DNA of 50,125 nt, from positions 1-50,125 of IMG/VR virus record IMGVR_UViG_3300025120_000087; one strand, 5' to 3'. Below, piece after piece: positions 1,384 to 48,483 of this stretch. Origin of the DNA: a virus. Taxonomy: Duplodnaviria > Caudoviricetes. The first letter of the stretch is position 1; every line of letters starts with the position of its first letter. The notes under the pieces are model-generated. The model made no database searches, was not told where the DNA came from, and saw only the letters and a list, made by a program, of their open reading frames with translations. Position numbers and translations under genes: made by a program.

Positions 1384-2952
1384 ATGGAGTATAATTTACC
1401 AAGTGAGATTGTTAAAGATCTTAACTTTGGCGACAATGCCAAAAATAGAATAATCGCTGGTGTAGACAAATTGGCATCTGCCGTAAAGTCTACATTAGGC
1501 GCCTCTGGAAAGTGTGTTATTTATGAAGATGCTAGAGGCAACCCGGTCATAACAAAAGACGGTGTAACCGTTGCAGAAAGCGTAGTCTTATATGATCCGG
1601 TTGAAAACATGGGTGCAACTTTAATCAAAGAAGCAGCCCGAAATACTGTAAAAGAAGCAGGCGATGGCACAACAACCGCTACGGTGTTAGCTGAATCACT
1701 GCTAAAAACAGTAAACTCACCAAGATTTGAGCAAAATTCACTAAGAGAGCTAAAAACAGGTATAAGTTCAGGCCTTGAAAAGGTTAATGACTACCTTGAT
1801 ACTATCAAAATTGACGTAAATGACGATATGTTGCAAAACGTAGCAGCTATTTCGTGTAATAACGATGAAGAGCTCGGTAAAATCATAGCTGAAGCATACA
1901 CTACTGTTGGAAAAGACGGTGTTGTGCTCATGGAAACGTCAGAAACTGAAGAAACTTACGTTGAGGTTGTTGATGGTGTGCAATTTGACTCACCATTAAC
2001 ATCACCTCATTTCGCTACAGCTACAGAAAAGCAAAAAGCAGAGCTAGATAATCCGTTAATCTTAATATGCATGTCTGAAATACCTAATGTACGTAAAATA
2101 CAAGGTATATTAGAGCATGTTATAAAAACTAACAGATCTTTACTAATAGTAGCCCCAGTATCACAACAAGTAAAGTCGGCACTTTTAATGAATAAGGTAA
2201 AAGGTAACATTAAAGTTAACATTATTGACTTACCTGGCTTCGGTCCTACTAAAAAAGATTCATGTGAAGACTTAGCCGCACTAACCGGCGCTACGGTAAT
2301 GAACGAAGAACTAGGTGATGATTTAGATGGTATAACATTAGATATACTAGGAGAAGCTGAATACGCAACTACAGATATTAATAATACAGTAATAACAATA
2401 TTAGAAGGAGTAGATGTTGAAGATAGGATTGACCAAGTCGCAAAACTCATTGCAGATGAAAAAAGCGGTTTCTTTAAAAAGAAGCTGGAAGAAAGATTGT
2501 CTATGCTATCGGGTTCAGTTGGTATCATCAAAGTGGGTGCTGACTCTAAAGTCGAGCTCAAAGAAAAGAAGGATAGGGTTGAAGACGCAATATACGCGAC
2601 TAAAGCAGCGTTAAAAGAAGGTATAGTGCCAGGAGGCGGTATAGCCCTCTTTAATGCAGCGAAAAAAATCGAACCTACTAACGTAGGTGAAGAAGCATTG
2701 TTTTCTTCTATTGTAGCCCCAATGGCAACTATATTAGATAATGCTGGTATGCCAACTCATGTAGACTTACCAGAAGAACAAGGACACGGCTTTAACGTCG
2801 TAACTGGTGAAGTTGTTGATATGGTTAAAGAAGGTATCATCGATCCTGTGCTAGTAACTAAGACAGCTCTTAAAAATGCTGTATCTGTTGTAACTACTAT
2901 TATATCCGCCGACTGTGTAATTTCAAACATACGAGTAAATGAAAGCAGTTAA
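1384..2952 (+). CDS. groEL: Phage-encoded chaperonin GroEL (Cpn60)
   Basis: [41 protein letters not shown] and GIIDP motifs. No C-terminal GGM tail. Confidence 0.97.
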
Positions 2953-3196
2953 TCATTATTTAGTAATTGAGCCAATTAAACAAGAGCTCAAGAAGGTTGG
3001 TGGATTAATCCTTACAGACGAGGTCAACGAGGATAATAGATATTTAAAAGCAAAAGTCATATCAACTGGAAACCTTGTAGAAGGTATTAAAGAAGGTGAT
3101 GTGGTTTATTACGATAAACACGCTGGACATGGTATTCAGCACAAAGATAATTTTTACGGCGTTATTAAACAAATGGACGTCGTATTAATTGATTAA
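2939..3196 (+). CDS. groES: Co-chaperonin GroES (Cpn10)
   Basis: 85 aa with a GGLIL mobile loop and IKEGDVVYYDKHAG. Overlaps the end of groEL. Confidence 0.9.
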   Translation: MKAVNHYLVIEPIKQELKKVGGLILTDEVNEDNRYLKAKVISTGNLVEGIKEGDVVYYDKHAGHGIQHKDNFYGVIKQMDVVLID

Positions 3197-3270: not shown

Positions 3271-3711
3271 ATGAACATGGACAAGTATTTATTTTTCCGA
3301 GCAGTTGCCGACGAAGATAACGACGATGGTGATGGAGCTTCAAGTGGAGTAAACCCAACATCAATTGCTATTCCAGCAAGAAACATTACAGCTATTGGAC
3401 CAGCTTCTGGTACTACTTTAGAAATTTATTTCGAAAGTGTAAGAAATCAAGCTGGTAATGGTACAGATGACGAAAACGTTGTTTCAGACAAGGTTGTTAT
3501 TGGCATCGGATCACACACGCACAAAGAAGTAATAGACAATATTTTAAGAGCTATTACATCAACAGGACCAAGCTATACTGATGGTTTTATTGACGTATGT
3601 GATGATATGACTACTAACGCTGCTAATGAAGCAGTTTCAGCTGTAAGACTAAACGCTAATATTACTGGTATCGCTGATACTGGTATTACAGTAGCTGCGG
3701 CATTATCTTAA
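3271..3711 (+). CDS. Acidic hypothetical protein, paralog 1 of a tandem pair
   Basis: Begins MDKYLFFRAVADEDNDDG and ends ITVAAALS, similar to the next ORF. Confidence 0.8.
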   Translation: MNMDKYLFFRAVADEDNDDGDGASSGVNPTSIAIPARNITAIGPASGTTLEIYFESVRNQAGNGTDDENVVSDKVVIGIGSHTHKEVIDNILRAITSTGPSYTDGFIDVCDDMTTNAANEAVSAVRLNANITGIADTGITVAAALS

Positions 3712-3737
3712 TTGTTAACTAATTAAAAAATAGAAAA

Positions 3738-4148
3738 ATGGAAAAATATTTGTATTTTAGAACACAGGCCGATCAAGATAATGATGACGGCATTGACGAT
3801 TCGGTATATGTAAAAGCTTCTAGTATCACTGGTTTAGTTCCAACGAGTACTACAGCTTTAACAATATTCTTTGAAAGCGTTAAAAATCAACCAGGTCACG
3901 CTGGTGCTACAGGTGATGAGATCATTAGAGACAGCGTTGTAGTTAATTGTACTGCTGGCAAAGTAAAGCAAGTTATGGGAACTATCGTTAGAGCTATCAA
4001 CTCTTCAGCACCTTTATATAATGATGGTGTAATAGTTGTTGCTGACGATGTTACTACAACTTTAGCAGACGCTACAGTAGCAGCTCAATACATCGACGCT
4101 GGTATTACAAGTTGTGGAGCTATTACAGTTGCTGCCGCTCTATCTTAA
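3738..4148 (+). CDS. Acidic hypothetical protein, paralog 2 of a tandem pair
   Basis: Begins MEKYLYFRTQADQDNDDG and ends ITVAAALS. Confidence 0.8.
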   Translation: MEKYLYFRTQADQDNDDGIDDSVYVKASSITGLVPTSTTALTIFFESVKNQPGHAGATGDEIIRDSVVVNCTAGKVKQVMGTIVRAINSSAPLYNDGVIVVADDVTTTLADATVAAQYIDAGITSCGAITVAAALS

Positions 4149-5440: not shown

Positions 5441-5806
5441 ATGGGAATTAACAATACACAAACATCATACGCTTTTGGACAACTAGGTAGTGTTTACACT
5501 ACAGCTAGTAGTGACGCTATTAAACCTCCAACAGACAAGGTATTTGTAGCAATAACAATGCTTGCAGACACTGTATTCGACGCTTCAGGCGGTTTAATTG
5601 CAGACATACCTCTTATTGGATCTGATCAATATATTGGAACAGATCAACCAGCCCACGATTTAGCCGCAGGCTCTGAAACTGCGGACGAAGGTTCTGGTGG
5701 TCAAGTTGTTGATTCAGTTGTTTTTCCAAAAGGTGTTACTATTTACGGAAGATGGACTGAAATTGACGTAAACAGTGGTTCAGTTGTAGCTTATATAGGA
5801 GCGTAA
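5441..5806 (+). CDS. Hypothetical, probably virion-associated protein
   Basis: ORF track; beta-rich; coupled to the LamG gene by a TAATG overlap. Confidence 0.7.
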   Translation: MGINNTQTSYAFGQLGSVYTTASSDAIKPPTDKVFVAITMLADTVFDASGGLIADIPLIGSDQYIGTDQPAHDLAAGSETADEGSGGQVVDSVVFPKGVTIYGRWTEIDVNSGSVVAYIGA

Positions 5807-8388: not shown

Positions 8389-8617
8389 AGCTGTTGAAGA
8401 GCTTATTAAAGTAGCTAAAGAAGCTATTGTTGATAGTGGCGATGACATTACAGCTGATAGACTTAAAAACGCGGCTGCCACTAAAAAGTTGGCTATATTC
8501 GATGCTTTTGAAATACTTAATCGTATCCAAGAAGAAGAGGCTATGCTTAACGGTAAAGATCCAGAAAAAAAAGAAGAGCGCGTGTTTAAAGGATTTGCTG
8601 AAGGAAGATCTAAATGA
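8342..8617 (+). CDS. Putative terminase small subunit
   Basis: Small helical protein overlapping the start of the large terminase; call is positional only. Confidence 0.45.
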   Translation: MNIKETKKSIIQAGHRAVEELIKVAKEAIVDSGDDITADRLKNAAATKKLAIFDAFEILNRIQEEEAMLNGKDPEKKEERVFKGFAEGRSK

Positions 8618-10830
8618 GTTACAAGCAAACGCTATATAAAATAATAGAGCCTGTAAAAAGAACTACTATTAGCCGAATGAATAAAGGCAACAAGTGGAGG
8701 TACGGCTACGATAAAGATCACGATATTGTAGTTATATCTAAAACAGGTAAAATAGGAGATATATACGAAATACAAGGTTTAAAAATAGCTCTACCTAAAG
8801 CTCCAAAAACAGTGCACGCTAATGAAGATAACAAATGGTGTCAAATAGAAAAGCCAAAAGTTCTTGAAAAAATAAAAACTATATTTGATTGGCGAGCTTA
8901 TCCTGAAGAGCAAAAAGAACAATGGTACGATTATATAGATGAAGAATTCAAAAGACGTGACGAGGGTTTCTGGTTTCAAAATGCTAGTATTCCAACTTAT
9001 ATTACAGGAACTCACTACATGTACCTCCAATGGTCTAAAATAGATGTAGGCGCTCCAGACTTTCGTGAGGCTAATAGATTATTTTTTATATTTTGGGAAG
9101 CTTGTAAAGCTGACAAAAGATGTTACGGTATGTGTTATCTTAAAAACAGACGTTCTGGCTTTTCTTTCATGAGCTCTGCTGAAACCGTTAACTTAGCTAC
9201 AATATCGAGTGATAGTAGATATGGAATACTATCTAAAAGTGGTGGTGATGCTAAAAAGATGTTTACTGACAAGGTTGTACCTATATCCATAAACTATCCT
9301 TTTTTCTTCAAACCTATTCAAGATGGTATGGACAGACCTAAGTCTGAACTAGCGTATCGTGTGCCAGCGAGCAAGTTTACTCGTAAAAAAATAGAGGTAA
9401 ACGAAAAGCTAGAAGAGATAAAAGGACTTGACACAACGATTGATTGGAAGAATACAGGTGATAACAGCTATGATGGTGAAAAATTAGCGCTGTTAGTACA
9501 CGATGAAAGCGGTAAGTGGGAAAGACCTGACAACATACTTAACAACTGGCGAGTTACAAAAACTTGTCTTAGATTAGGTGCTAGAGTTGTAGGTAAGTGT
9601 ATGATGGGTTCAACATCTAACGCGTTAGATAAAGGTGGAGATAACTTTAAAAAGCTGTATAATGATTCAGATGTCACTTCTAGAAACCGCAATGGACAAA
9701 CAAAGTCTGGTTTATATTCTTTGTTTATCCCAATGGAATGGAACTATGAGGGATTTATTGATGAGTTTGGACAACCAGTATTTAATAACCCAGATCATGA
9801 TGTATACGGACCCGACGGTGAATTAATAGACATAGGTATTATTGATCACTGGAATAACGAGGCTGATGGATTAAAAGGAGATCAAGATGGTTTAAACGAA
9901 TTTTACCGTCAGTTTCCTAGAACAGAAGAGCATGCTTTTAGAGATGAAGCAAAGAATAGCTTGTTTAACTTAATAAAGATATACGAGCAAATAGATTATA
10001 ATGAAGGCGTTGGTAGTGATTCAACAGTAACAACAGGTAGCTTCCAGTGGGAGAACGGGATAAAAGACAGTAAAGTTATATTTTATCCAGATCCTAGCGG
10101 AAGATTTAAAATAAGCTGGGTACCACCATCAAACCTTCAAAACAAATTTATAACTAAAAATGGAGTTAAATATCCTGGCAATGAACACATGGGCGCTTTT
10201 GGCTGCGATAGTTATGATATTAGTGGTACTGTTGATGGTAGAGGATCCAACGGATCTCTTCATGGACTAACTAAGTTTTCTATGGAAGACTCGCCACCAA
10301 ACCACTTTTTTTTAGAATACATTGCAAGACCACAGACCGCAGAAATATTTTTTGAAGACGTGCTAATGGCCTGCATATTTTACGGTATGCCTATACTAGC
10401 GGAAAACAACAAACCAAGACTTTTGTATCATTTTAAAAGAAGAGGATATAGAGGATTTAGCATGAATAGACCAGACAAGGTTTGGAATAAATTATCTGTT
10501 ACTGAAAAAGAAATAGGTGGGATACCAAACTCTAGCGAAGACATAAAGCAAGCTCATGCGGCTGCTATAGAGATGTATATCAATGACCACGTTGGCCACA
10601 AAGGCGATGGAGTTTATGGTAACATTTATTTTAACGAAACGCTAAACGATTGGGCTAGGTTTGATATAAACAAAAGAACAAAGTTTGATGCCACTATAAG
10701 TTCAGGGCTTGCTGTAATGGCTTGCAATAGACACTTGTATAGACCACACGCAGAATTTAAAAAGCAACCATTAAACATAAGTATTTCTAGATATAGCAAT
10801 ACTGGTAACACATCAAGAATAATAAAATAA
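8614..10830 (+). CDS. terL: Terminase large subunit
   Basis: KNRRSGFS (variant Walker A), LLVHDESGKW (Walker B), MGSTSN, GCDSYD and FDATISSG nuclease acidic residues; precedes the portal. Confidence 0.9.
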   Translation: MSYKQTLYKIIEPVKRTTISRMNKGNKWRYGYDKDHDIVVISKTGKIGDIYEIQGLKIALPKAPKTVHANEDNKWCQIEKPKVLEKIKTIFDWRAYPEEQKEQWYDYIDEEFKRRDEGFWFQNASIPTYITGTHYMYLQWSKIDVGAPDFREANRLFFIFWEACKADKRCYGMCYLKNRRSGFSFMSSAETVNLATISSDSRYGILSKSGGDAKKMFTDKVVPISINYPFFFKPIQDGMDRPKSELAYRVPASKFTRKKIEVNEKLEEIKGLDTTIDWKNTGDNSYDGEKLALLVHDESGKWERPDNILNNWRVTKTCLRLGARVVGKCMMGSTSNALDKGGDNFKKLYNDSDVTSRNRNGQTKSGLYSLFIPMEWNYEGFIDEFGQPVFNNPDHDVYGPDGELIDIGIIDHWNNEADGLKGDQDGLNEFYRQFPRTEEHAFRDEAKNSLFNLIKIYEQIDYNEGVGSDSTVTTGSFQWENGIKDSKVIFYPDPSGRFKISWVPPSNLQNKFITKNGVKYPGNEHMGAFGCDSYDISGTVDGRGSNGSLHGLTKFSMEDSPPNHFFLEYIARPQTAEIFFEDVLMACIFYGMPILAENNKPRLLYHFKRRGYRGFSMNRPDKVWNKLSVTEKEIGGIPNSSEDIKQAHAAAIEMYINDHVGHKGDGVYGNIYFNETLNDWARFDINKRTKFDATISSGLAVMACNRHLYRPHAEFKKQPLNISISRYSNTGNTSRIIK

Positions 10831-10834
10831 AAAT

Positions 10835-13258
10835 ATGGCAGAGTCTGTTGTAAAGAGTTATTTTCCAAGTCAAGTAGTTAGCGATGCTGAAAAGTTAAGC
10901 TATGACTACGGTTTAAAAGTTGCGAAAGCAATAGAAACAGAGTGGTTTCATAATGACAGAAACCACAATAGGTATCAGAACAATTTAAACGACTTTCATA
11001 AATTAAGGCTGTACGCTAGGGGAGAGCAATCAGTTCAAAAATATAAAGACGAGTTATCAATAAATGGAGACTTGTCTTATTTAAACCTAGACTGGACACC
11101 TGTTCCAATAATCCCTAAGTTTGTTGATATTGTAGTTAACGGTATAGCTGATAGGGCTTTTGAAATAAAAGCTTATTCGCAAGATGAGTATGGAGTTTCT
11201 AAAAGAACAGAATATATGCAGAGTATTCTTGATGATATGGCTGCTAAAGAAATGAATGACTTCGTGGCTGATGAGTTTGGTATTAACTTATATCAAAACG
11301 ATCCTGAAACTTTACCAGAAAACAACGAAGAGCTAGAGCTGCACATGCAGTTAAACTACAAGCAAGCCGTAGAAATAGCTGAAGAGCAAGCTTTAAACGT
11401 TTTGCTTGAAGGTAATAATTACGACTTAATAAAGAAAAGACTATACTACGACTTAACAGTATTAGGTATTGGCGCTGTTAAAACTGATTTTACTACGTCT
11501 GAAGGTGTTACTATAGACTATGTTGATCCAGCTGATTTAGTTTACTCTTATACTGAATCGCCATATTTTGATGATATATACTATGTTGGAGAAGTTAAGA
11601 CAATACCTATTAACGAGCTCGCTAAGCAGTTTCCTTATTTAACGCAAGAAGACTTAGAAGAAATACAACAGTCTGGCTATGCTCAAACAAACTCTTATCA
11701 AAGCGGGCCTAGATACGAAGAGTCTGACAGAAATAAAGTTCAAGTTTTATATTTTAATTATAAAACACATATGAACGAGGTTTACAAAGTAAAAGAAACT
11801 GGAAGTGGAGCTGACAAGCTTATAGAAAAAGATGATAGTTTTAATCCTCCTGCTGAAGCTGAAGGAAATTTTTCAAAACTTGAAAGAGCTATTGAAACTC
11901 TATATGAAGGCGCTTTAATACTTGGAACTAACAAGCTGTTAAAGTGGGAGATGTCTGACAACATGATGAGATCTAAAAGTAATTTTACTAAGGTTAAAAT
12001 GAACTATAGTATTGTTGCTCCTCGTATGTATAAAGGTCGCATAGAATCTTTAGTAAAGCGTATAACTGGATTTGCTGATATGATACAGCTTACTCACTTA
12101 AAGTTGCAGCAAGTAATGTCGCGTATGGTTCCAGACGGCGTTTATTTAGATGCCGATGGTTTAGCAGAAGTTGATTTAGGTAATGGTACAAACTACAATC
12201 CACAAGAAGCTTTAAACATGTTCTTCCAAACAGGTTCTGTTATTGGTAGGTCATTTACAAGTGAAGGTGATATGAATCCAGGTAAAGTGCCTATTCAAGA
12301 AATTACATCTGGATCAGGAGGTAACAAAATAAACGCTTTAATAGGTAATTACAACTATTACTTGCAGATGATACGTGACGTAACCGGGCTTAATGAAGCT
12401 CGTGATGGTAGTACGCCTGATGAAAGAGCTTTAGTTGGTATCCAAAAAATGGCCGCCGCAAACAGTAATACAGCCACAAGACATATATTAGATTCAGGTT
12501 TATTTTTAACAGCTGAAACCGCAGAAAAGCTTTCGCTTCGTATATCTGACATTATAGAATATTCTCCTACAAAAGAAGCTTTTATACAAAGCATAGGCGT
12601 ACACAATGTTGCTACGCTAAAAGAAATGTCTGAGCTTCATTTATATGACTTTGGTATATTTTTAGATTTAGCTCCAGATGAAGAGCAAAAAGCTTTATTA
12701 GAAAATAACATCCAGCAAGCGTTAGCTCAGAAAACTATAGATATAGAAGACGCTATAGATCTTAGAGATATATCTAACATTAAAGTAGCTAATCAACTAC
12801 TTAAGCTTAGAAGAAACAAAAAGCAACAACAAGATCAGCAAGCGCAGCAGCAAAATATACAAGCTCAAGCGCAGGCTAATGTTCAACAGCAACAAGCCGC
12901 CGCTCAACTAGAAATTCAAAAGCAACAAGCTTTAAAACAAGCAGAAGCTCAATTGCTGCAAATGCAGTCTCAATTAGACGCTGGTAAAATGCAAGCTGAA
13001 ACACAAATGAAAGCTCAATTAGCTGCTCAGAAGTTTCAATATGACATGCAATTAAAATCTTTAGAATCTAGCGTATTAAAAGATAGAGAAAAAACTAAAG
13101 AAGACAGAAAAGACGAAAGAACTAAAATACAAGCCACTCAGCAGTCAGAAATGATTGATCAAAGAAAATCAGGCAAACCACCTAAAAACTTTGAGCAAAC
13201 GAGTAATGATATACTTGAAGGTGGATTTGATTTAGGACCTATTGATCTTAATAGATAA
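10835..13258 (+). CDS. Portal protein
   Basis: 807 aa directly after TerL; PIIPKFVDIVV, IRDVTGLNEARDGS; Q-rich C-terminal coiled coil as in podovirus portals. Confidence 0.85.
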   Translation: MAESVVKSYFPSQVVSDAEKLSYDYGLKVAKAIETEWFHNDRNHNRYQNNLNDFHKLRLYARGEQSVQKYKDELSINGDLSYLNLDWTPVPIIPKFVDIVVNGIADRAFEIKAYSQDEYGVSKRTEYMQSILDDMAAKEMNDFVADEFGINLYQNDPETLPENNEELELHMQLNYKQAVEIAEEQALNVLLEGNNYDLIKKRLYYDLTVLGIGAVKTDFTTSEGVTIDYVDPADLVYSYTESPYFDDIYYVGEVKTIPINELAKQFPYLTQEDLEEIQQSGYAQTNSYQSGPRYEESDRNKVQVLYFNYKTHMNEVYKVKETGSGADKLIEKDDSFNPPAEAEGNFSKLERAIETLYEGALILGTNKLLKWEMSDNMMRSKSNFTKVKMNYSIVAPRMYKGRIESLVKRITGFADMIQLTHLKLQQVMSRMVPDGVYLDADGLAEVDLGNGTNYNPQEALNMFFQTGSVIGRSFTSEGDMNPGKVPIQEITSGSGGNKINALIGNYNYYLQMIRDVTGLNEARDGSTPDERALVGIQKMAAANSNTATRHILDSGLFLTAETAEKLSLRISDIIEYSPTKEAFIQSIGVHNVATLKEMSELHLYDFGIFLDLAPDEEQKALLENNIQQALAQKTIDIEDAIDLRDISNIKVANQLLKLRRNKKQQQDQQAQQQNIQAQAQANVQQQQAAAQLEIQKQQALKQAEAQLLQMQSQLDAGKMQAETQMKAQLAAQKFQYDMQLKSLESSVLKDREKTKEDRKDERTKIQATQQSEMIDQRKSGKPPKNFEQTSNDILEGGFDLGPIDLNR

Positions 13259-13279
13259 CACTAACTTATATTTTATATT

Positions 13280-14473
13280 ATGGAAGAAAATGAAAACGTA
13301 GTTGAAGAAACTACACAAGAACAAACTGTAGATACAGTTGATGAAAGTAAGTTTGAAAGCGCTGGCGATGACAGTGTAATCAAAATAGATTTAGACAAAC
13401 CAATTAAAGATGAAAAACCAGAAGAAACAACAGAAGCTGCAGATGGCCCAGCTGACGACACAGGAGTGGTTGGAAGCGATGAAAGTGCCGACGCCACACC
13501 GGAACAAGAAGAAGTACAGCCGGAAGCTAAAGCACAAGACGCAGTACTAGAAGAAGTAACTGAAGAAGAAGTAAAAGAAGAAGTTGAGCAGGTTACAGAA
13601 GAAGTAGAAGAAGCTATAGCTGAAGCTAAAGAGACTGGAAAACCATTACCAGAAAACGTTCAAAAGTTAGTTGACTTTATGAACGATACGGGTGGTGATA
13701 TAGAAGACTATGTGAAGTTGAATAAAGATTATTCAAATCTAGACAACTTAAGTCTTTTAAAAGAATACTATAAGCAAACTAAACCTCATCTAGACTTAGA
13801 AGAAATAAACTTCATGATGGAAGATCAATTCGCTTTTGATGAAGAGATAGACGAGGAAAGAGATATAAAAAGAAAGAAATTAGCTTTGAAAGAGCAAGTT
13901 GCTCAAGCAAAGAACCACTTGGAAAGTGTAAAATCCAAATACTATGAAGACATCAAATACGGCTCTAAGTTGACACAAGATCAGCAAAAAGCCGTTGATT
14001 TCTTTAATAGATATAACAAAGAGTCGGAAGACAACAGGAAAGTAGCTGAAAAACAGCAAAGAACGTTTTTAAACAAGACTAGTCAACTATTCAACAAAGA
14101 CTTCAAAGGTTTTGAATACAATGTTGGAGATAAAAAGTACAGGTTTAATGTTAGAAACGCTGACGCTGTTAAAGATACTCAAAGCGATATTAATAACTTC
14201 ATAGGAAAGTTTCTTAATGAAAGTAATGAAATACAAGATGCTAAGGGTTATCACAAAGGTTTATTCACAGCTATGAACGCTGACGCTGTAGCGCAGCATT
14301 TCTACGAGCAAGGTAAAGCTGACGCACTCAAGGAGAGCGTTGCTAAATCTAAAAATGTTAACATGGACCCAAGACAACAGTTTACAGGACCAATTAACAC
14401 TGGTGGAATGAAAGCTAGAGTTTTAGGTGATAGTTCTTCTGATTTTAAGTTTAAAATTAAAAATAGAAAATAA
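13280..14473 (+). CDS. Putative capsid scaffolding protein
   Basis: Highly acidic N-terminus and helical body; lies between portal and capsid genes. Confidence 0.7.
   Translation: MEENENVVEETTQEQTVDTVDESKFESAGDDSVIKIDLDKPIKDEKPEETTEAADGPADDTGVVGSDESADATPEQEEVQPEAKAQDAVLEEVTEEEVKEEVEQVTEEVEEAIAEAKETGKPLPENVQKLVDFMNDTGGDIEDYVKLNKDYSNLDNLSLLKEYYKQTKPHLDLEEINFMMEDQFAFDEEIDEERDIKRKKLALKEQVAQAKNHLESVKSKYYEDIKYGSKLTQDQQKAVDFFNRYNKESEDNRKVAEKQQRTFLNKTSQLFNKDFKGFEYNVGDKKYRFNVRNADAVKDTQSDINNFIGKFLNESNEIQDAKGYHKGLFTAMNADAVAQHFYEQGKADALKESVAKSKNVNMDPRQQFTGPINTGGMKARVLGDSSSDFKFKIKNRK
13410..13550 (+). CDS. Nested +1-frame ORF (46 aa) with an ArfA-like basic C-terminal motif
   Basis: Read manually: MKNQKKQQKLQMAQLTTQEWLEAMKVPTPHRNKKKYSRKLKHKTQY*, leader CCAATTAAAG-ATG. 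Confidence 0.6.
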   Translation: MKNQKKQQKLQMAQLTTQEWLEAMKVPTPHRNKKKYSRKLKHKTQY

Positions 14474-14500: not shown

Positions 14501-15982
14501 ATGTCAATTTCAAATCCTGGTAATTTGTTAAACAGTACTCCTGGTCCAATCCAGCAAGCTACTGCAGCAAACTACCTAGATCTTTCAACCAGTGCTGGTT
14601 GGGGTCAACAATACGTTCCAGATTTAATGGAAAAAGAAGCTGAGGTTTTTGGACCTCGTACAATTTCTGGTTTCTTAAATCAAGTTGGAGCAGAAGAGGC
14701 AATGACTGCTGATCAAGTTATTTGGTCTGAGCAGGGTCGCTTACACTTATCTTATACATGTTCAATCACTGACGTTGATGATGGTGCTTCTACAAATGGT
14801 GGTGAAATAACTATTACTGATCATATTGATACTAATGCGACTTACGTTTCAGGTTCTCACGGTGTAAGAGTTAACGATACTATTATCGTTGCTACTTCGG
14901 CTGCTGTACTAAAATGTTTAGTGGTTAAAGTTGTAGGTAACGTGCTAGATGTAGAGCCTTACGGCGCTGCTAACATTACATCTCTTGGAGAAGGTAACAC
15001 TGGTACATTATTAGTTTATGGTTCTGAATTTGCAAAAGGTAAATCATACAACTCTCAAGTAGCTGCTGCTGCTGATAGAAGAGAAGCTAATGAGCCTAAG
15101 TTTAACACTTTTAGTAACAAGCCTATCATTATAAAAGACTATTACGAAGTTAATGGTTCTGATGCTTCTAAAATTGGTTGGGTAGAGGTTTCTACTGAAA
15201 GCGGACAAGGCGGTTACCTATGGTACTTAAAAGCTGAAGCTGATACAAGAGCACGTTTCACTGATTATTTAGAAATGGCAATGTTAGAAGGTGAATTAGG
15301 TGTGGCTGGTACAGACGATGTTGCAGATTTCTTGTCTGGCGCAGATACTGACTCTTCAGGTACGCAAGGTTTATTTGCTGCTATTGAGTCAAGAGGTAAT
15401 GTTACTACTGGTGTTACTGGTGTTAACGCTGCTACTGATCTAGCTGAATTTGACGCTATTTTAGCTGAATTCGACAAGCAAGGTGCTATCGAAGAAAACA
15501 TGATGTTTGTTAATCGTTCAACTAGCTTAGCTATTGACGATATGCTAGCTTCTATGAACTCTTACGGTGCTGGTGGTACATCTTACGGTGTATTCAACAA
15601 CTCTGAAGATATGGCATTAAACCTAGGCTTTTCTGGTTTCCGTAGAGGATCTTACGACTTCTATAAGTCTGACTTCCGTTACTTAAACGACAAAGCTACT
15701 CGTGGTGGTATCAACGATGCTGCTGGTGCTAATGCGATCAGAGGGGTTGTAATTCCTGCTGGTTCTTCATCTGTTTATGATCAAACTGTTGGTGCTTCAA
15801 TTAAGCGTCCGTTCTTACACGTACGTTATAGAGCTTCTCAAACTGATGATCGTAGAATGAAGACTTGGGTTACTGGATCTGTAGGAGCTGCTACATCAGC
15901 TTTAGACATGATGCAACTTCACTTCTTATCAGAAAGATGTTTGATCACTCAAGGTGCAAACAACTTTATGTTAATGAAGTAA
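14501..15982 (+). CDS. Major capsid protein
   Basis: 493 aa after the scaffold, strongly biased codons (GCT/GGT/TTC/AAC), followed by a strong terminator. Confidence 0.85.
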   Translation: MSISNPGNLLNSTPGPIQQATAANYLDLSTSAGWGQQYVPDLMEKEAEVFGPRTISGFLNQVGAEEAMTADQVIWSEQGRLHLSYTCSITDVDDGASTNGGEITITDHIDTNATYVSGSHGVRVNDTIIVATSAAVLKCLVVKVVGNVLDVEPYGAANITSLGEGNTGTLLVYGSEFAKGKSYNSQVAAAADRREANEPKFNTFSNKPIIIKDYYEVNGSDASKIGWVEVSTESGQGGYLWYLKAEADTRARFTDYLEMAMLEGELGVAGTDDVADFLSGADTDSSGTQGLFAAIESRGNVTTGVTGVNAATDLAEFDAILAEFDKQGAIEENMMFVNRSTSLAIDDMLASMNSYGAGGTSYGVFNNSEDMALNLGFSGFRRGSYDFYKSDFRYLNDKATRGGINDAAGANAIRGVVIPAGSSSVYDQTVGASIKRPFLHVRYRASQTDDRRMKTWVTGSVGAATSALDMMQLHFLSERCLITQGANNFMLMK

Positions 15983-15990
15983 AACACTTT

Positions 15991-16025
15991 AAGCTACCTC
16001 GCCTTCGGGTGGGGTAGTTTTTTTT
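15991..16025 (+). terminator. Rho-independent terminator after the capsid gene
   Basis: GCTACCTCGCC-TTCG-GGTGGGGTAGT hairpin followed by a T run. Confidence 0.9.
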
Positions 16026-41054: not shown

Positions 41055-41414
41055 ATGGCTTATACTCAAAAAAACAACCCACTTGCAGTTACTTCTTGCG
41101 GCAGACGCAGAGCAGGGGGTATAGGCTCTGGCTTTAAAATGTCAGAAGAAGATTCGCCAATGCAAAAGCGATTAAGAAAAACAACTAAGGGTAAGGGTAG
41201 AAACTTTAGAACAGCGAAAGAAGGTGCTGGCATGACTTCTAAGGGAGTTAAAGAGTATAGACGTAAAAACCCAGGTAGTAAGCTAAAAACAGCTGTTACA
41301 GGTAAAGTTAAACCTGGCAGCAAGGCAGCTAAACGTAGAAAATCTTTTTGTGCAAGATCAAAAGGCTGGACGGGCGAAAGAGGTAAAGCTGCTAGACGTA
41401 GATGGAAATGTTAA
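41055..41414 (+). CDS. Basic hypothetical protein
   Basis: K/R-rich; KRRKSFCARS...RRWKC motif recalled from marine phage proteins. Confidence 0.75.
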   Translation: MAYTQKNNPLAVTSCGRRRAGGIGSGFKMSEEDSPMQKRLRKTTKGKGRNFRTAKEGAGMTSKGVKEYRRKNPGSKLKTAVTGKVKPGSKAAKRRKSFCARSKGWTGERGKAARRRWKC

Positions 41415-41424
41415 AAATATAGAT

Positions 41425-41679
41425 ATGGGATACGTAAATGCAGCACAAAGAAAAGCCGTGTGGGCTAGTAAAAAAGATGGTGGTAAAGGAAATCCAAATA
41501 AGAAAAGCCCTAACAAAGCGTTAGGTGTAAAAACAATTGGAGAAAAAAGCCCTATGCTAGGTAAAATTAGCGCTAGTTGTAAAGCTAGAGCTAAAAAGAA
41601 ATTTAAAGTTTGGCCTAGCGCTTACGCTTCAGGTTGGGGTGTAAGATGTACTAGAGGAGATTTTAAAAAGAAAAAGTAA
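41425..41679 (+). CDS. Basic hypothetical protein
   Basis: ORF track gives 41350; ATG 41425 avoids the overlap. Contains KVWPSAYASG. Confidence 0.7.
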   Translation: MGYVNAAQRKAVWASKKDGGKGNPNKKSPNKALGVKTIGEKSPMLGKISASCKARAKKKFKVWPSAYASGWGVRCTRGDFKKKK

Positions 41680-42222: not shown

Positions 42223-42519
42223 ATGAAAAAAGCACCTGCAAAAATGAAAAAAGGTCCAATGAAGATCACTGATGCTCAAAAGACTCTACCGCCGAAATTA
42301 CAAAAAGCTATTGTGGCAAAGGAAAAGAAAGAAGGTAAAGGTAGCATGGCTAAAATGAAAAAAGCAGCTATGAAAATGAAAGAAGAAGAAAAGTCTGTTA
42401 TGGCTATGAAGAAAACAGCTATGAAGATGAAAAAAGAGTCTATGGCTATGATGAAGAAAGCTGCAATGAAAATGAAAAAAGTTTCAGCTATGAAGATGAA
42501 AATGAAGAAGAAAAAGTAA
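42223..42519 (+). CDS. Lys/Met-rich low-complexity protein (histone-H1-like composition)
   Basis: Repeated AMKMKK-type units. Confidence 0.7.
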   Translation: MKKAPAKMKKGPMKITDAQKTLPPKLQKAIVAKEKKEGKGSMAKMKKAAMKMKEEEKSVMAMKKTAMKMKKESMAMMKKAAMKMKKVSAMKMKMKKKK

Positions 42520-42888
42520 ATGTACGACATTAAGTCTAAGTTTAAGAGTAGTCCACTGCCTTGTTGGAGCGGTTACGAAAGAGTGCCTGGAACTGCCAAG
42601 GGTAGCAAAGGTAGCTGTCGTAAGTCTTCGCCTGCAACTAAAAAGCAGAAAGGCGGTGGCACTCGAAAAACTTGTTTACCTGCAGCTAAAATAGCTAGCA
42701 TGAGCAAGAAGGAAAGACAAAGACTTGTTAGCGCTAAACAAAAATCTGGTAAAGCTGGTAAGTACAAAAGGTCTTCAAAAACTAATGTAAAAGGAGCTCG
42801 TAAAAAAGGAGCTACACTGAGAGATTGGTTTAAAAAGGAAGACTGGAGGCAGGTTAACAACCCCAGCAAAAAATGTGGTGAGAAATAA
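42520..42888 (+). CDS. Basic Cys-containing hypothetical protein
   Basis: CWSGYERVPG, CLPAAK and LRDWFKKEDW motifs. Confidence 0.7.
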   Translation: MYDIKSKFKSSPLPCWSGYERVPGTAKGSKGSCRKSSPATKKQKGGGTRKTCLPAAKIASMSKKERQRLVSAKQKSGKAGKYKRSSKTNVKGARKKGATLRDWFKKEDWRQVNNPSKKCGEK

Positions 42889-46828: not shown

Positions 46829-47233
46829 ATGGCAACAACAACAGCAACATTAACATTAGCTAGCACAGACTTATTGTCTGACGAATTAGCTTTAACTACG
46901 TCAGCTACACTTACAGGTCACGATAACTCAACTGGAGTTACAGCTACTATAGGTTTAAGTAGGCTAACAATATCAGGTACTAGTGAAACAACTATATTTG
47001 ATGCTTCAGCTTATACAGATGATAAAGCACATAAAATATACATAAAGAATACAGAGACAACAGCAAGCAAATCTTTTTTAGTTAAAGTGGGTGGGCAAGA
47101 GCTAGGTAGAGTATACGCTGGAGATTTTATGTTTGCGCCTTGGGGTGCGGACACAACCTCAACAGATAGTGATATATCAATAACACCTTCTGATGCTGGT
47201 ATGACTGTAGAATATATGGCTTTCATAGACTAA
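46829..47233 (+). CDS. Structural protein, paralog 1 of 3
   Basis: MATTTATLTLAS...GRVYAGDFMFAPW...VEY. Confidence 0.75.
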   Translation: MATTTATLTLASTDLLSDELALTTSATLTGHDNSTGVTATIGLSRLTISGTSETTIFDASAYTDDKAHKIYIKNTETTASKSFLVKVGGQELGRVYAGDFMFAPWGADTTSTDSDISITPSDAGMTVEYMAFID

Positions 47234-47259
47234 TAAATTAACAACAACAATAGATAAAA

Positions 47260-47694
47260 ATGGCAACAACAGCAACTTTTACATTAACAAGTGCAGACAT
47301 TGCTGGTGATCCAGTAAATGTTTCTAAAACGGCTACTTGCACAAAAGCAGGGGCTACAACTGATTTAGATCAAACTACTGGGCTCAACAGAGTTCATTTA
47401 AGATCTACAACGAATAAAGTATTACTTGGCGCTAACGCTGAAGGTAATGATTTAGCAGCTAAAGTTTATATTATAAATAAAGCTACAGATCCTAGCCTTT
47501 ACGTTACGATAACAATTAATGCTAGAACAATTGGAAAATTATACGCAGGAGACTGGATGTTTATTCCATGGAGCCAAACAGACGAAGCCGCTGACATTGA
47601 AGTAGCAGCGTCTAACTGGACAGCTTCAACTGGAGACATACCTGTTGAGTACGCGTTATTCCACGAAGATACAGATTTTTTAACTAACGCTTAA
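47260..47694 (+). CDS. Structural protein, paralog 2 of 3
   Basis: MATTATFTLTS...GKLYAGDWMFIPW...VEY. Confidence 0.75.
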   Translation: MATTATFTLTSADIAGDPVNVSKTATCTKAGATTDLDQTTGLNRVHLRSTTNKVLLGANAEGNDLAAKVYIINKATDPSLYVTITINARTIGKLYAGDWMFIPWSQTDEAADIEVAASNWTASTGDIPVEYALFHEDTDFLTNA

Positions 47695-47704
47695 TAATAA
47701 AGAC

Positions 47705-48112
47705 ATGGCAACAGTAAACGCAACAATTTCATTAGCTAGCGATATTACAGATAGCAATATCAATGTTAGCAACACTAGCTCTTTATTTGAAGCTGGTGGC
47801 ACGACAGGTTTAACAACAATGACGTCAGTGACTAAAGTTTTATCAAGCACTAACCAAGTTGATTTAATTACAACTGGTAGTGTTTCTACGACTCACTCAT
47901 ACGTCTACATCAACAATCCTTCAGCAGACGCTACAGAGTTTTTTAATATTACTATTGGTGCTGCGGGCGGTGGGTCTGCTACAGATACTGAAGAAATAGG
48001 TAGACTGTACGGTGGCGACTGGATGTGGTTTCCTTGGAATGTGGGCGATGACATCTGCATTACTCCTAGTGTAGCTACAGATATGACAGTTGAGTACCAA
48101 GTATTTAGCTAA
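47705..48112 (+). CDS. Structural protein, paralog 3 of 3
   Basis: MATVNATISLAS...GRLYGGDWMWFPW...VEY. Confidence 0.75.
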   Translation: MATVNATISLASDITDSNINVSNTSSLFEAGGTTGLTTMTSVTKVLSSTNQVDLITTGSVSTTHSYVYINNPSADATEFFNITIGAAGGGSATDTEEIGRLYGGDWMWFPWNVGDDICITPSVATDMTVEYQVFS

Positions 48113-48114
48113 GC

Positions 48115-48483
48115 ATGCCGGCGGTAAAGAGGCATAGTATAACCTATAACAGTGGCTTATTCCATAACGGAGTAGCCACTGGCGTAGATATAGATCTACT
48201 AAATCCTGGTGACGGAGTAAGTAGTATAAACTCTATAGTTATCGCTAACACCCACGACACCTCAGACGCTACTCTAAGTTTGTTTTTGCAGAACTCGCCT
48301 GCCAGCGGAACAGCTAAGACATTTTTTATTATTAAAAATGTAGTTATACCTAACGGGGTTTCATTATTGTTAGACGATCCTAGTATGCTTTCGTTTAACA
48401 ACAACTCTTCCACAGGTTTTGGTTTGTTCGCTACGATAGGCGCTAGTGACGGAACACAACTTGTAGATATTTTAATTAACTAA
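48115..48483 (+). CDS. Hypothetical beta-rich structural protein
   Basis: ORF track; SIVIANTH...IIKNVVIPNGVSLLL. Confidence 0.7.
   Translation: MPAVKRHSITYNSGLFHNGVATGVDIDLLNPGDGVSSINSIVIANTHDTSDATLSLFLQNSPASGTAKTFFIIKNVVIPNGVSLLLDDPSMLSFNNNSSTGFGLFATIGASDGTQLVDILIN

Follow-up and report, generated by a model that had tools for sequence, protein, structure and literature searches.

Nested basic-peptide genes occupy a swappable slot in a scaffold-like phage gene and may encode ribosome-binding peptides

Introduction

Does a scaffold-like gene of a tailed phage conceal, in its +1 frame, a second gene whose product acts on ribosomes in the manner of the rescue factor ArfA? The question is posed by a 50-kb virus record (IMGVR_UViG_3300025120_000087, Caudoviricetes), the whole 50,125 nt of which were analysed and are referred to here as the window. 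A preliminary description had proposed that a late-expressed, ArfA-like peptide is overprinted on the scaffold gene.

According to the source papers, ArfA residues 31-48 fill the mRNA tunnel and the tail is needed for ribosome affinity (PMC5378476), while Lys-His is the one motif common to ArfA and BrfA and contacts 16S U534, and brfA carries a terminator within its coding region (PMC6881298). A precedent for a phage-borne ArfA is HTVC027P gp30 (PMC12753301).

Results

A 46-residue ORF nested in the acidic linker of a scaffold-like gene

The head genes of the window lie on the + strand and comprise the terminase large subunit (8614..10830; phrog_6681, E 5e-169), the portal protein (10835..13258; phrog_6547, E 3.5e-156), a 397-aa ORF (13280..14473) and a virion structural protein, probably the major capsid protein (14501..15982; phrog_13704, E 4e-95). 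From the end of the portal gene to the end of the capsid-like gene the window has no terminator-like hairpin; one lies 3' of the capsid-like gene at 15991..16020 (+). The closest cultured relatives of the window are Elemovirus (Flavobacterium), Maribacter phage Panino and Cellulophaga phages, and we therefore infer a Bacteroidota-type phage with a Flavobacteriales host. The 397-aa ORF is probably the capsid scaffold, as judged from its position between the portal and capsid genes and its acidic, extended character (net charge -35 over residues 1-122). Its Elemovirus homologue is annotated as a "structural protein", and the protein itself has no Pfam or PHROG match of note.

Within the acidic N-terminal linker of this scaffold-like gene, a +1-frame ORF at 13410..13550 (+) encodes a 46-aa peptide with a net charge of +11, here called peptide A, at the place and with the ending given in the preliminary description. 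Its conserved L-T-x-x-E-W-L...P-x-P part (13452..13496, +) is followed by a basic tail, N-K-K-K-Y-x-R-K-x-K-H (13503..13535, +), that resembles both the tail of the family DUF7230 and the mRNA-tunnel tail of ArfA. The initiation region (13390..13409, +) is A-rich, unstructured and without a Shine-Dalgarno (SD) sequence; adenines at -3, -11, -12 and -13 and a minimum free energy of 0 kcal/mol agree with the A-rich start context noted earlier. An in-frame +1 stop lies five codons upstream of the nested ATG, and residue 12 is a second in-frame Met and a possible alternative start. AlphaFold predicts for the lone peptide a helix at residues 17-24, little else and no strand of the kind by which ArfA/BrfA-type factors bind RF2 domain 2/4, with a pTM of 0.32 that is uninformative for a peptide folding on the ribosome. 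Only one contig from an RNA library covers the whole nested ORF (13260-13791, eight differences); such contigs give neither strand nor level and are not proof of transcription.

Elsewhere in the window, phage GroEL and GroES are encoded at 1384-2952 and 2939-3196, with a putative 66-aa basic +1 ORF inside GroEL at 2414-2614. Five standalone small ORFs contain 27-36% Lys+Arg (805-1035, 41055-41414, 41425-41679, 42223-42519 and 42520-42888); one of them has a match to DUF6321, and a Met/Lys/Ala repeat protein is encoded at 42223-42519. Clustered short Ala/Thr/Asp-rich ORFs at 3271-4148, 5441-5806 and 46829-48483 look paralogous and are probably structural.

Conservation and selection, not length or codon use, set the nested ORF apart

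Two arguments for a nested gene had to be dropped, as both figures are at chance level. G/C-ending scaffold codons in the overlap, which the preliminary description had regarded as uncommon for this genome, number 12 of the 47 third positions of codons 44-90, against 10.9 +/- 2.8 expected from the codon usage of the window. Upon synonymous recoding of the scaffold gene (20,000 trials), codons 44-89 remained stop-free in the +1 frame in 39% of trials, and an ATG-initiated +1 ORF of at least 46 codons arose in 26%. By itself, the length of the nested ORF is unremarkable (P=0.26-0.39).

What lifts the ORF above chance is its conservation and the bias of its substitutions. Among 81 scaffold genes (the best 80 of at least 586 confirmed homologues, plus the window), peptide A is kept in 69; eight others carry an unrelated peptide, B, and four carry neither, one of them 5'-truncated. 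The peptide is present even in scaffolds with only 33% identity to that of the window. Across 63 distinct peptide A cores, the W, both P, the Y, the R and four K are invariant, and the H is found in 62. Nucleotide entropy over these cores is highest at the wobble position of peptide A (0.67 vs 0.41 and 0.41), and over the shared bases the scaffold varies more than the peptide.

The same direction is seen in 220 isolated substitutions from 75 nearest-neighbour pairs. In the nested region, 158 substitutions were silent for the peptide but changed the scaffold (49 expected), and 38 were silent for the scaffold but changed the peptide (60 expected). In the scaffold core, used as a control, the two classes were reversed, with 14 and 237 substitutions, respectively, vs 73 expected for each. 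The persistence of the ORF and its motif in scaffold homologues, put forward as a check in the preliminary description, is thereby borne out. On this comparative evidence, the nested ORF is almost certainly a real gene under purifying selection.

An in-frame ATG lies upstream in 105 of 106 A motifs, and the distance from the preceding +1 stop to the nested ATG has a median of five codons. An adenine occupies -3 in 0.89 of the nested A starts (n=82) and 81% of the B starts (n=21), compared with 0.36 and 0.42 in control +1 ATGs; acidic scaffold codons account for part of this share, and the relatedness of the sequences inflates it. It agrees with the adenine at -3 reported in PMC6847099 as a determinant of initiation in F. 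johnsoniae.

In a sister lineage of eight genes, the linker length is retained and A has decayed with stops. Decayed or start-less A sequences retained as scaffold linker (L331-L338, L344, L170, L316) constitute a natural loss series. We also considered a second small +1 ORF, at 14112-14204, and rejected it as a gene; it recurs in relatives, but selection there favours the scaffold frame (253 vs 31) and it is stop-free in only 35 of 107 genes.

The scaffold linker is a swappable slot

A survey of 199 usable genes, leaving out loci without a 5' end or the anchor motif, yielded 145 distinct scaffold N-termini: 93 with A, 12 with B and A, 9 with B and 31 with none. Since some of the sequences were collected via the A motif, these class counts should not be read as frequencies. 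By-eye inspection corrected one locus to B+A (L098) and another to B with a broken A (L170), and found decayed or start-less A in nine of the "none" class. The median linker spans 121 codons in genes with A and 130 in those with B+A, as opposed to 90 where no cassette is intact. In the distant clade, carriers and non-carriers have the extreme scaffold N-terminus in common, and the cassette therefore sits between conserved parts.

As judged by sequence identity, cassettes move between scaffold backbones. Locus L006 (A) matches locus L010 (B) at 96% identity in core DNA but at 53% in the cassette; L010 and L077, both with B, agree to 89% in the cassette and to 74% in the core. In the core tree, genes with only B are scattered and B+A genes lie at the base of the clade of the window. 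Tandem +1 genes, B then A, are found in ten loci (L089, L093, L124, L127, L145, L146, L148, L153, L168 and L169). Locus L093 has an insertion between its portal and scaffold genes, a homologue of the window ORF 5441-5806 that lies about 740 bp upstream of the peptide A gene.

Family B comprises at least four divergent subtypes that have an M-P-F-K start in common. It is likewise selected in the +1 frame (72 substitutions in 33 pairs, with 22 expected; a false match makes up one of the 44 rows), resembles phrog_1375 (E ~1e-5) and has standalone relatives in Streptomyces phages. The family is unrelated to A (hhalign probability of a match ~1), and the scaffold of the window itself holds no B peptide. 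Neither cassette was found in the cultured relatives with the same head genes. We therefore find, by comparison of these sequences, that the scaffold linker is a swappable slot that holds A, the unrelated basic B, B then A, a decayed A, or nothing.

Mean identity is lower among standalone copies of A (0.53) than among nested copies (0.64), and this greater diversity makes the capture of existing genes the simplest reading of how nested A arose. The peptide tree can be neither rooted nor resolved and gives no direction of capture.

Family A also occurs as standalone genes

A homologue search with the single sequence of peptide A gave no match, and a profile search with family A recovered 391 proteins among 8000 scored (58 representatives). 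Standalone copies are found in unrelated phage contigs and in a cultured phage, Immutovirus (gp123). Against cultured phages, tblastn gave no match with a close standalone relative and Immutovirus only with a distant one. Bacterial genomes carry the family in 3/301 (Flavobacteriales-type order), 5/61 and 2/61 of those searched, and these chromosomal copies adjoin alaS or recN. Genes near standalone A copies encode ligase, UvdE, RNase HII, a PNKP-type phosphatase, CCA/poly(A) polymerase and GroES/EL; most of the 114 neighbours have no Pfam family, and Pfam misses the head genes of this lineage. Two other phages (L160, L163) have a standalone A just downstream of GroES/GroEL. A gene after gapA in a Patescibacteria MAG (L178:3911-4105) has the same basic tail on an unrelated N-terminus. 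An anti-correlation with ArfB (0/7 cellular A carriers vs 15/61 and 20/61 relatives) was discarded as uninformative, as all 21 closest genomes around G001 lack ArfB regardless of the peptide.

Of the 153 standalone copies, 11 have a terminator-like hairpin before the stop codon, directly after the tail; none of the 162 nested copies has one. Leaving out 20 copies from a tail-biased scan, the hairpin occurs in 6/133 standalone copies vs 3/665 control neighbouring genes (Fisher p=0.001). Hairpin-positive copies represent about three lineages only, and 133 of the 153 standalone copies have no terminator-like element. The phage in-ORF hairpins abut a recurrent promoter-like element and may belong to shared regulatory DNA into which the ORF happens to extend. 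On large Bacteroidota-type phage contigs (L102, L120, L138, L156, L167, L507-L541), the recurrent hairpin shows compensatory changes and is followed by the promoter-like motif TCGTATAT. Three hairpins were tested by folding. That of L268 is no more stable than its shuffled versions (z -0.9), and that of the bacterial copy L422 is perfect, with a U-run (z -5.4). The L422 gene (L422:1480-1692; G497:C1 near 910844) is convergent with alaS, and its in-ORF hairpin precedes a hydrophobic tail. From this arrangement, L422 is a candidate tmRNA-gated rescue factor in Bacteroidota.

Peptide A is closest to DUF7230 and resembles ArfA in its tail

The ArfA-like character that had been proposed for the peptide stands for its tail and not for the family as a whole. 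A Y/F-x-R-K-x-K-H tail is present in 293 of 315 copies (153/162 nested, 140/153 standalone), and the A profile scores above 300/300 column shuffles against ArfA; for family B, 233/300 shuffles score as high. On the other side, the ArfA family PF03889 is matched by none of 42 family A members at E<=1 and by nothing in the genome of the window, and the KGKGS loop before the tyrosine of E. coli ArfA is found in 0/315 copies. In profile comparisons, alignment to ArfA (E. coli and relatives) is confined to the tail, with an hhalign probability of 10-33 over 14-20 columns; the values over all comparisons, 2-33, are low in absolute terms, and the probability against a phage ArfA set is <1. No relative was found in the PDB.

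DUF7230 is matched more closely. Peptide A of the window matches it weakly (E 0.008, 16.7 bits vs a gathering cut-off of 27), the best nested copy scores 22.2 and one standalone relative reaches 27.2. In all, 30/42 family A members match at E<=1, one of them above the gathering score. DUF7230 is also the top ESM Atlas cluster for peptide A (0.92, weak). An hhalign probability of 95 was obtained against a DUF7230-like set, a partly circular value, since the set was chosen by the common tail motif, and only the C-terminal 23-24 columns align. Three DUF7230-like genes, in a Pseudomonas jumbo phage (L269:1986-2138), a Pakpunavirus (L270:1998-2126) and a Demerecviridae Vibrio phage (L271:2004-2240), have an ArfA-like tail and no KGKGS loop. 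By these profile comparisons, peptide A is not a member of the ArfA family; its closest family is DUF7230, and it is best filed as DUF7230-related. No function is known for DUF7230 or for the PHROGs that match.

Discussion

The results suggest that peptide A probably binds ribosomes, be it to rescue or to block them. It may quite possibly bind the 30S mRNA channel for an ArfA-like rescue of ribosomes on stop-less mRNA, a narrower proposal that we put just short of probable. The following sequence of events would account for such a gene in such a place. Lys-rich genes read in the -1 frame would give Glu/Gln-rich, low-constraint sequence, and therefore whole genes would fit the acidic linker with the scaffold frame intact, while recombination would swap whole pre-existing genes there. 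Bacteroidota ribosomes, using upstream adenines and not SD sequences, would start at the nested ATG, and internal initiation on the late head-operon mRNA would yield peptide A. Like that of ArfA and BrfA, the Y-x-R-K-x-K-H tail would enter the 30S mRNA channel, and recruitment of a release factor could be helped by the N-terminal helix/PxP part. Since an in-ORF terminator is lacking in the nested copies, their expression would be free of tmRNA feedback and would accompany that of the head proteins, so that peptide A would keep ribosomes free during heavy late translation. Speaking against rescue, the slot is also filled by unrelated basic B peptides, as would be expected if basic peptides of any kind were selected.

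That same interchangeability with B is among the observations in favour of a different role, that of a basic, nucleic-acid-binding head or core peptide that neutralises DNA or partners the acidic scaffold. The J protein of microviruses offers a comparison. A net charge of +11, the location in the head operon and the several other Lys/Arg-rich small ORFs of the genome are consistent with it. However, the invariant W, P-x-P, Y, R and H go beyond what charge would need, and both A and B are missing from the cultured relatives that share the head genes. Standalone A beside DNA/RNA metabolism and chaperone genes (limited, given that most of the 114 neighbours have no family) and chromosomal copies beside alaS or recN also argue against a head function, which we regard as unlikely.

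If peptide A does enter the channel, it could plug it without a release factor, and so block, hibernate or bias ribosomes or compete with tmRNA-SmpB. Only the channel-binding tail is common to ArfA, the KGKGS loop and the N-terminus being different, and the family is mostly phage-borne, with the few Flavobacteriales-type genomes (3/301) noted above; both fit a blocker. Such a peptide, co-expressed with capsid proteins, would presumably hinder the late translation of the phage itself, and the in-ORF terminators of some standalone copies fit a tmRNA-gated backup rescue better. We consider plugging improbable. Similarly improbable is a target elsewhere in the host (RNA polymerase, the tRNA/RNA-repair machinery or a protein of host defence, for instance), with an ArfA-like tail that is convergent. 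The absence of a known function for DUF7230 and its matching PHROGs would accommodate it, as would the several standalone copies among RNA and DNA repair genes; the tail, however, beats shuffles against ArfA and retains the Lys-His pair.

That the +1 frame is no independent gene, being a by-product of the acidic linker or read only via a programmed +1 frameshift fusion, is very improbable: the ORF length is at chance level and the databases contain a few fusions of scaffold and peptide (P0002, P0004, P0141, P0144, P0150, P0152), but selection favours the +1 frame, standalone homologues exist, and the fusion junctions differ among each other, which fits indels. Programmed frameshifting as the main route was rejected in view of the stop shortly ahead of the ATG and because each slippery motif tested is confined to 14 or fewer of the 106 genes.

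Returning to ribosome rescue, we tentatively propose that a widespread group of marine Bacteroidota phages uses the scaffold linker as an exchangeable slot for captured, out-of-frame, Lys-rich host-takeover genes, which recombination would stack and swap. The commonest cargo would be a new ArfA/BrfA-like rescue family, extending to DUF7230 and also present on some Bacteroidota chromosomes, that is uncoupled from tmRNA control. All of DUF7230 may constitute a ribosome-channel family. If the peptide is indeed a rescue factor, a function would be gained for a large phage peptide family and for DUF7230, and Bacteroidota would gain a candidate release-factor-dependent rescue factor; the review, in its available part, names such factors only for other groups.

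Whatever the function, what is new here is the linker as a swappable slot and peptide A also as standalone genes. Gene callers miss such nested genes in hundreds of abundant marine phage genomes (at least 586 scaffold homologues). The slot illustrates how overlapping genes could arise when existing genes are captured, as opposed to new ones being invented. Gain, tandem stacking, swap and decay are all visible in one clade. In the literature searched, from which subscription journals are largely absent, DUF7230/PF23876 and two matching PHROGs are named in no paper found. Within the same range, supplements also lying outside it, we found no description of such nested genes in tailed-phage scaffold genes nor of a Bacteroidota ArfA-like factor.

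Comparison with known systems

Complete genes in another frame inside a phage gene are known from the classical cases of lambda Rz1 in Rz and of phiX174 B, E and K, and the nested genes described here are alike in this respect. Unlike them, the genes of the scaffold linker have standalone homologues, belong to at least two unrelated families, and can be tandem, swapped or lost as cassettes. In relatives, the +1 slot of A is also taken by the phrog_1375-like peptides (family B, M-P-F-K-S...Q), which are likewise selected in +1 but unrelated to A in sequence.

Among known peptide families, DUF7230 (PF23876) and phrog_6310, 1359 and 2701 also consist of basic phage peptides of 40-50 aa that end in K-Y-x-R-K-x-K-H. 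The DUF7230 members fetched have an N-terminal N-P-V-A motif, whereas peptide A has L-T-x-x-E-W-L...P-x-P and is nested in another gene. ArfA (PF03889, including that of pelagiphage HTVC027P) and peptide A are alike in size, in a helix followed by a basic tail and in the Y-x-R-K-x-K-H ending, and some standalone A relatives have putative non-stop-type hairpins. Peptide A differs from ArfA in the lack of the KGKGS loop (a 3-residue gap), of a Pfam match and of a similar N-terminus, and the nested gene, unlike that of ArfA, cannot be expressed from a terminated non-stop mRNA. With BrfA of Bacillus subtilis, family A has in common the Lys-His motif, a basic C-terminal tail and, in some standalone copies, a terminator-like hairpin in the coding region. 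BrfA is a chromosomal Bacillus gene with about 62 active residues, and its likeness to peptide A is one of description and not of sequence comparison.
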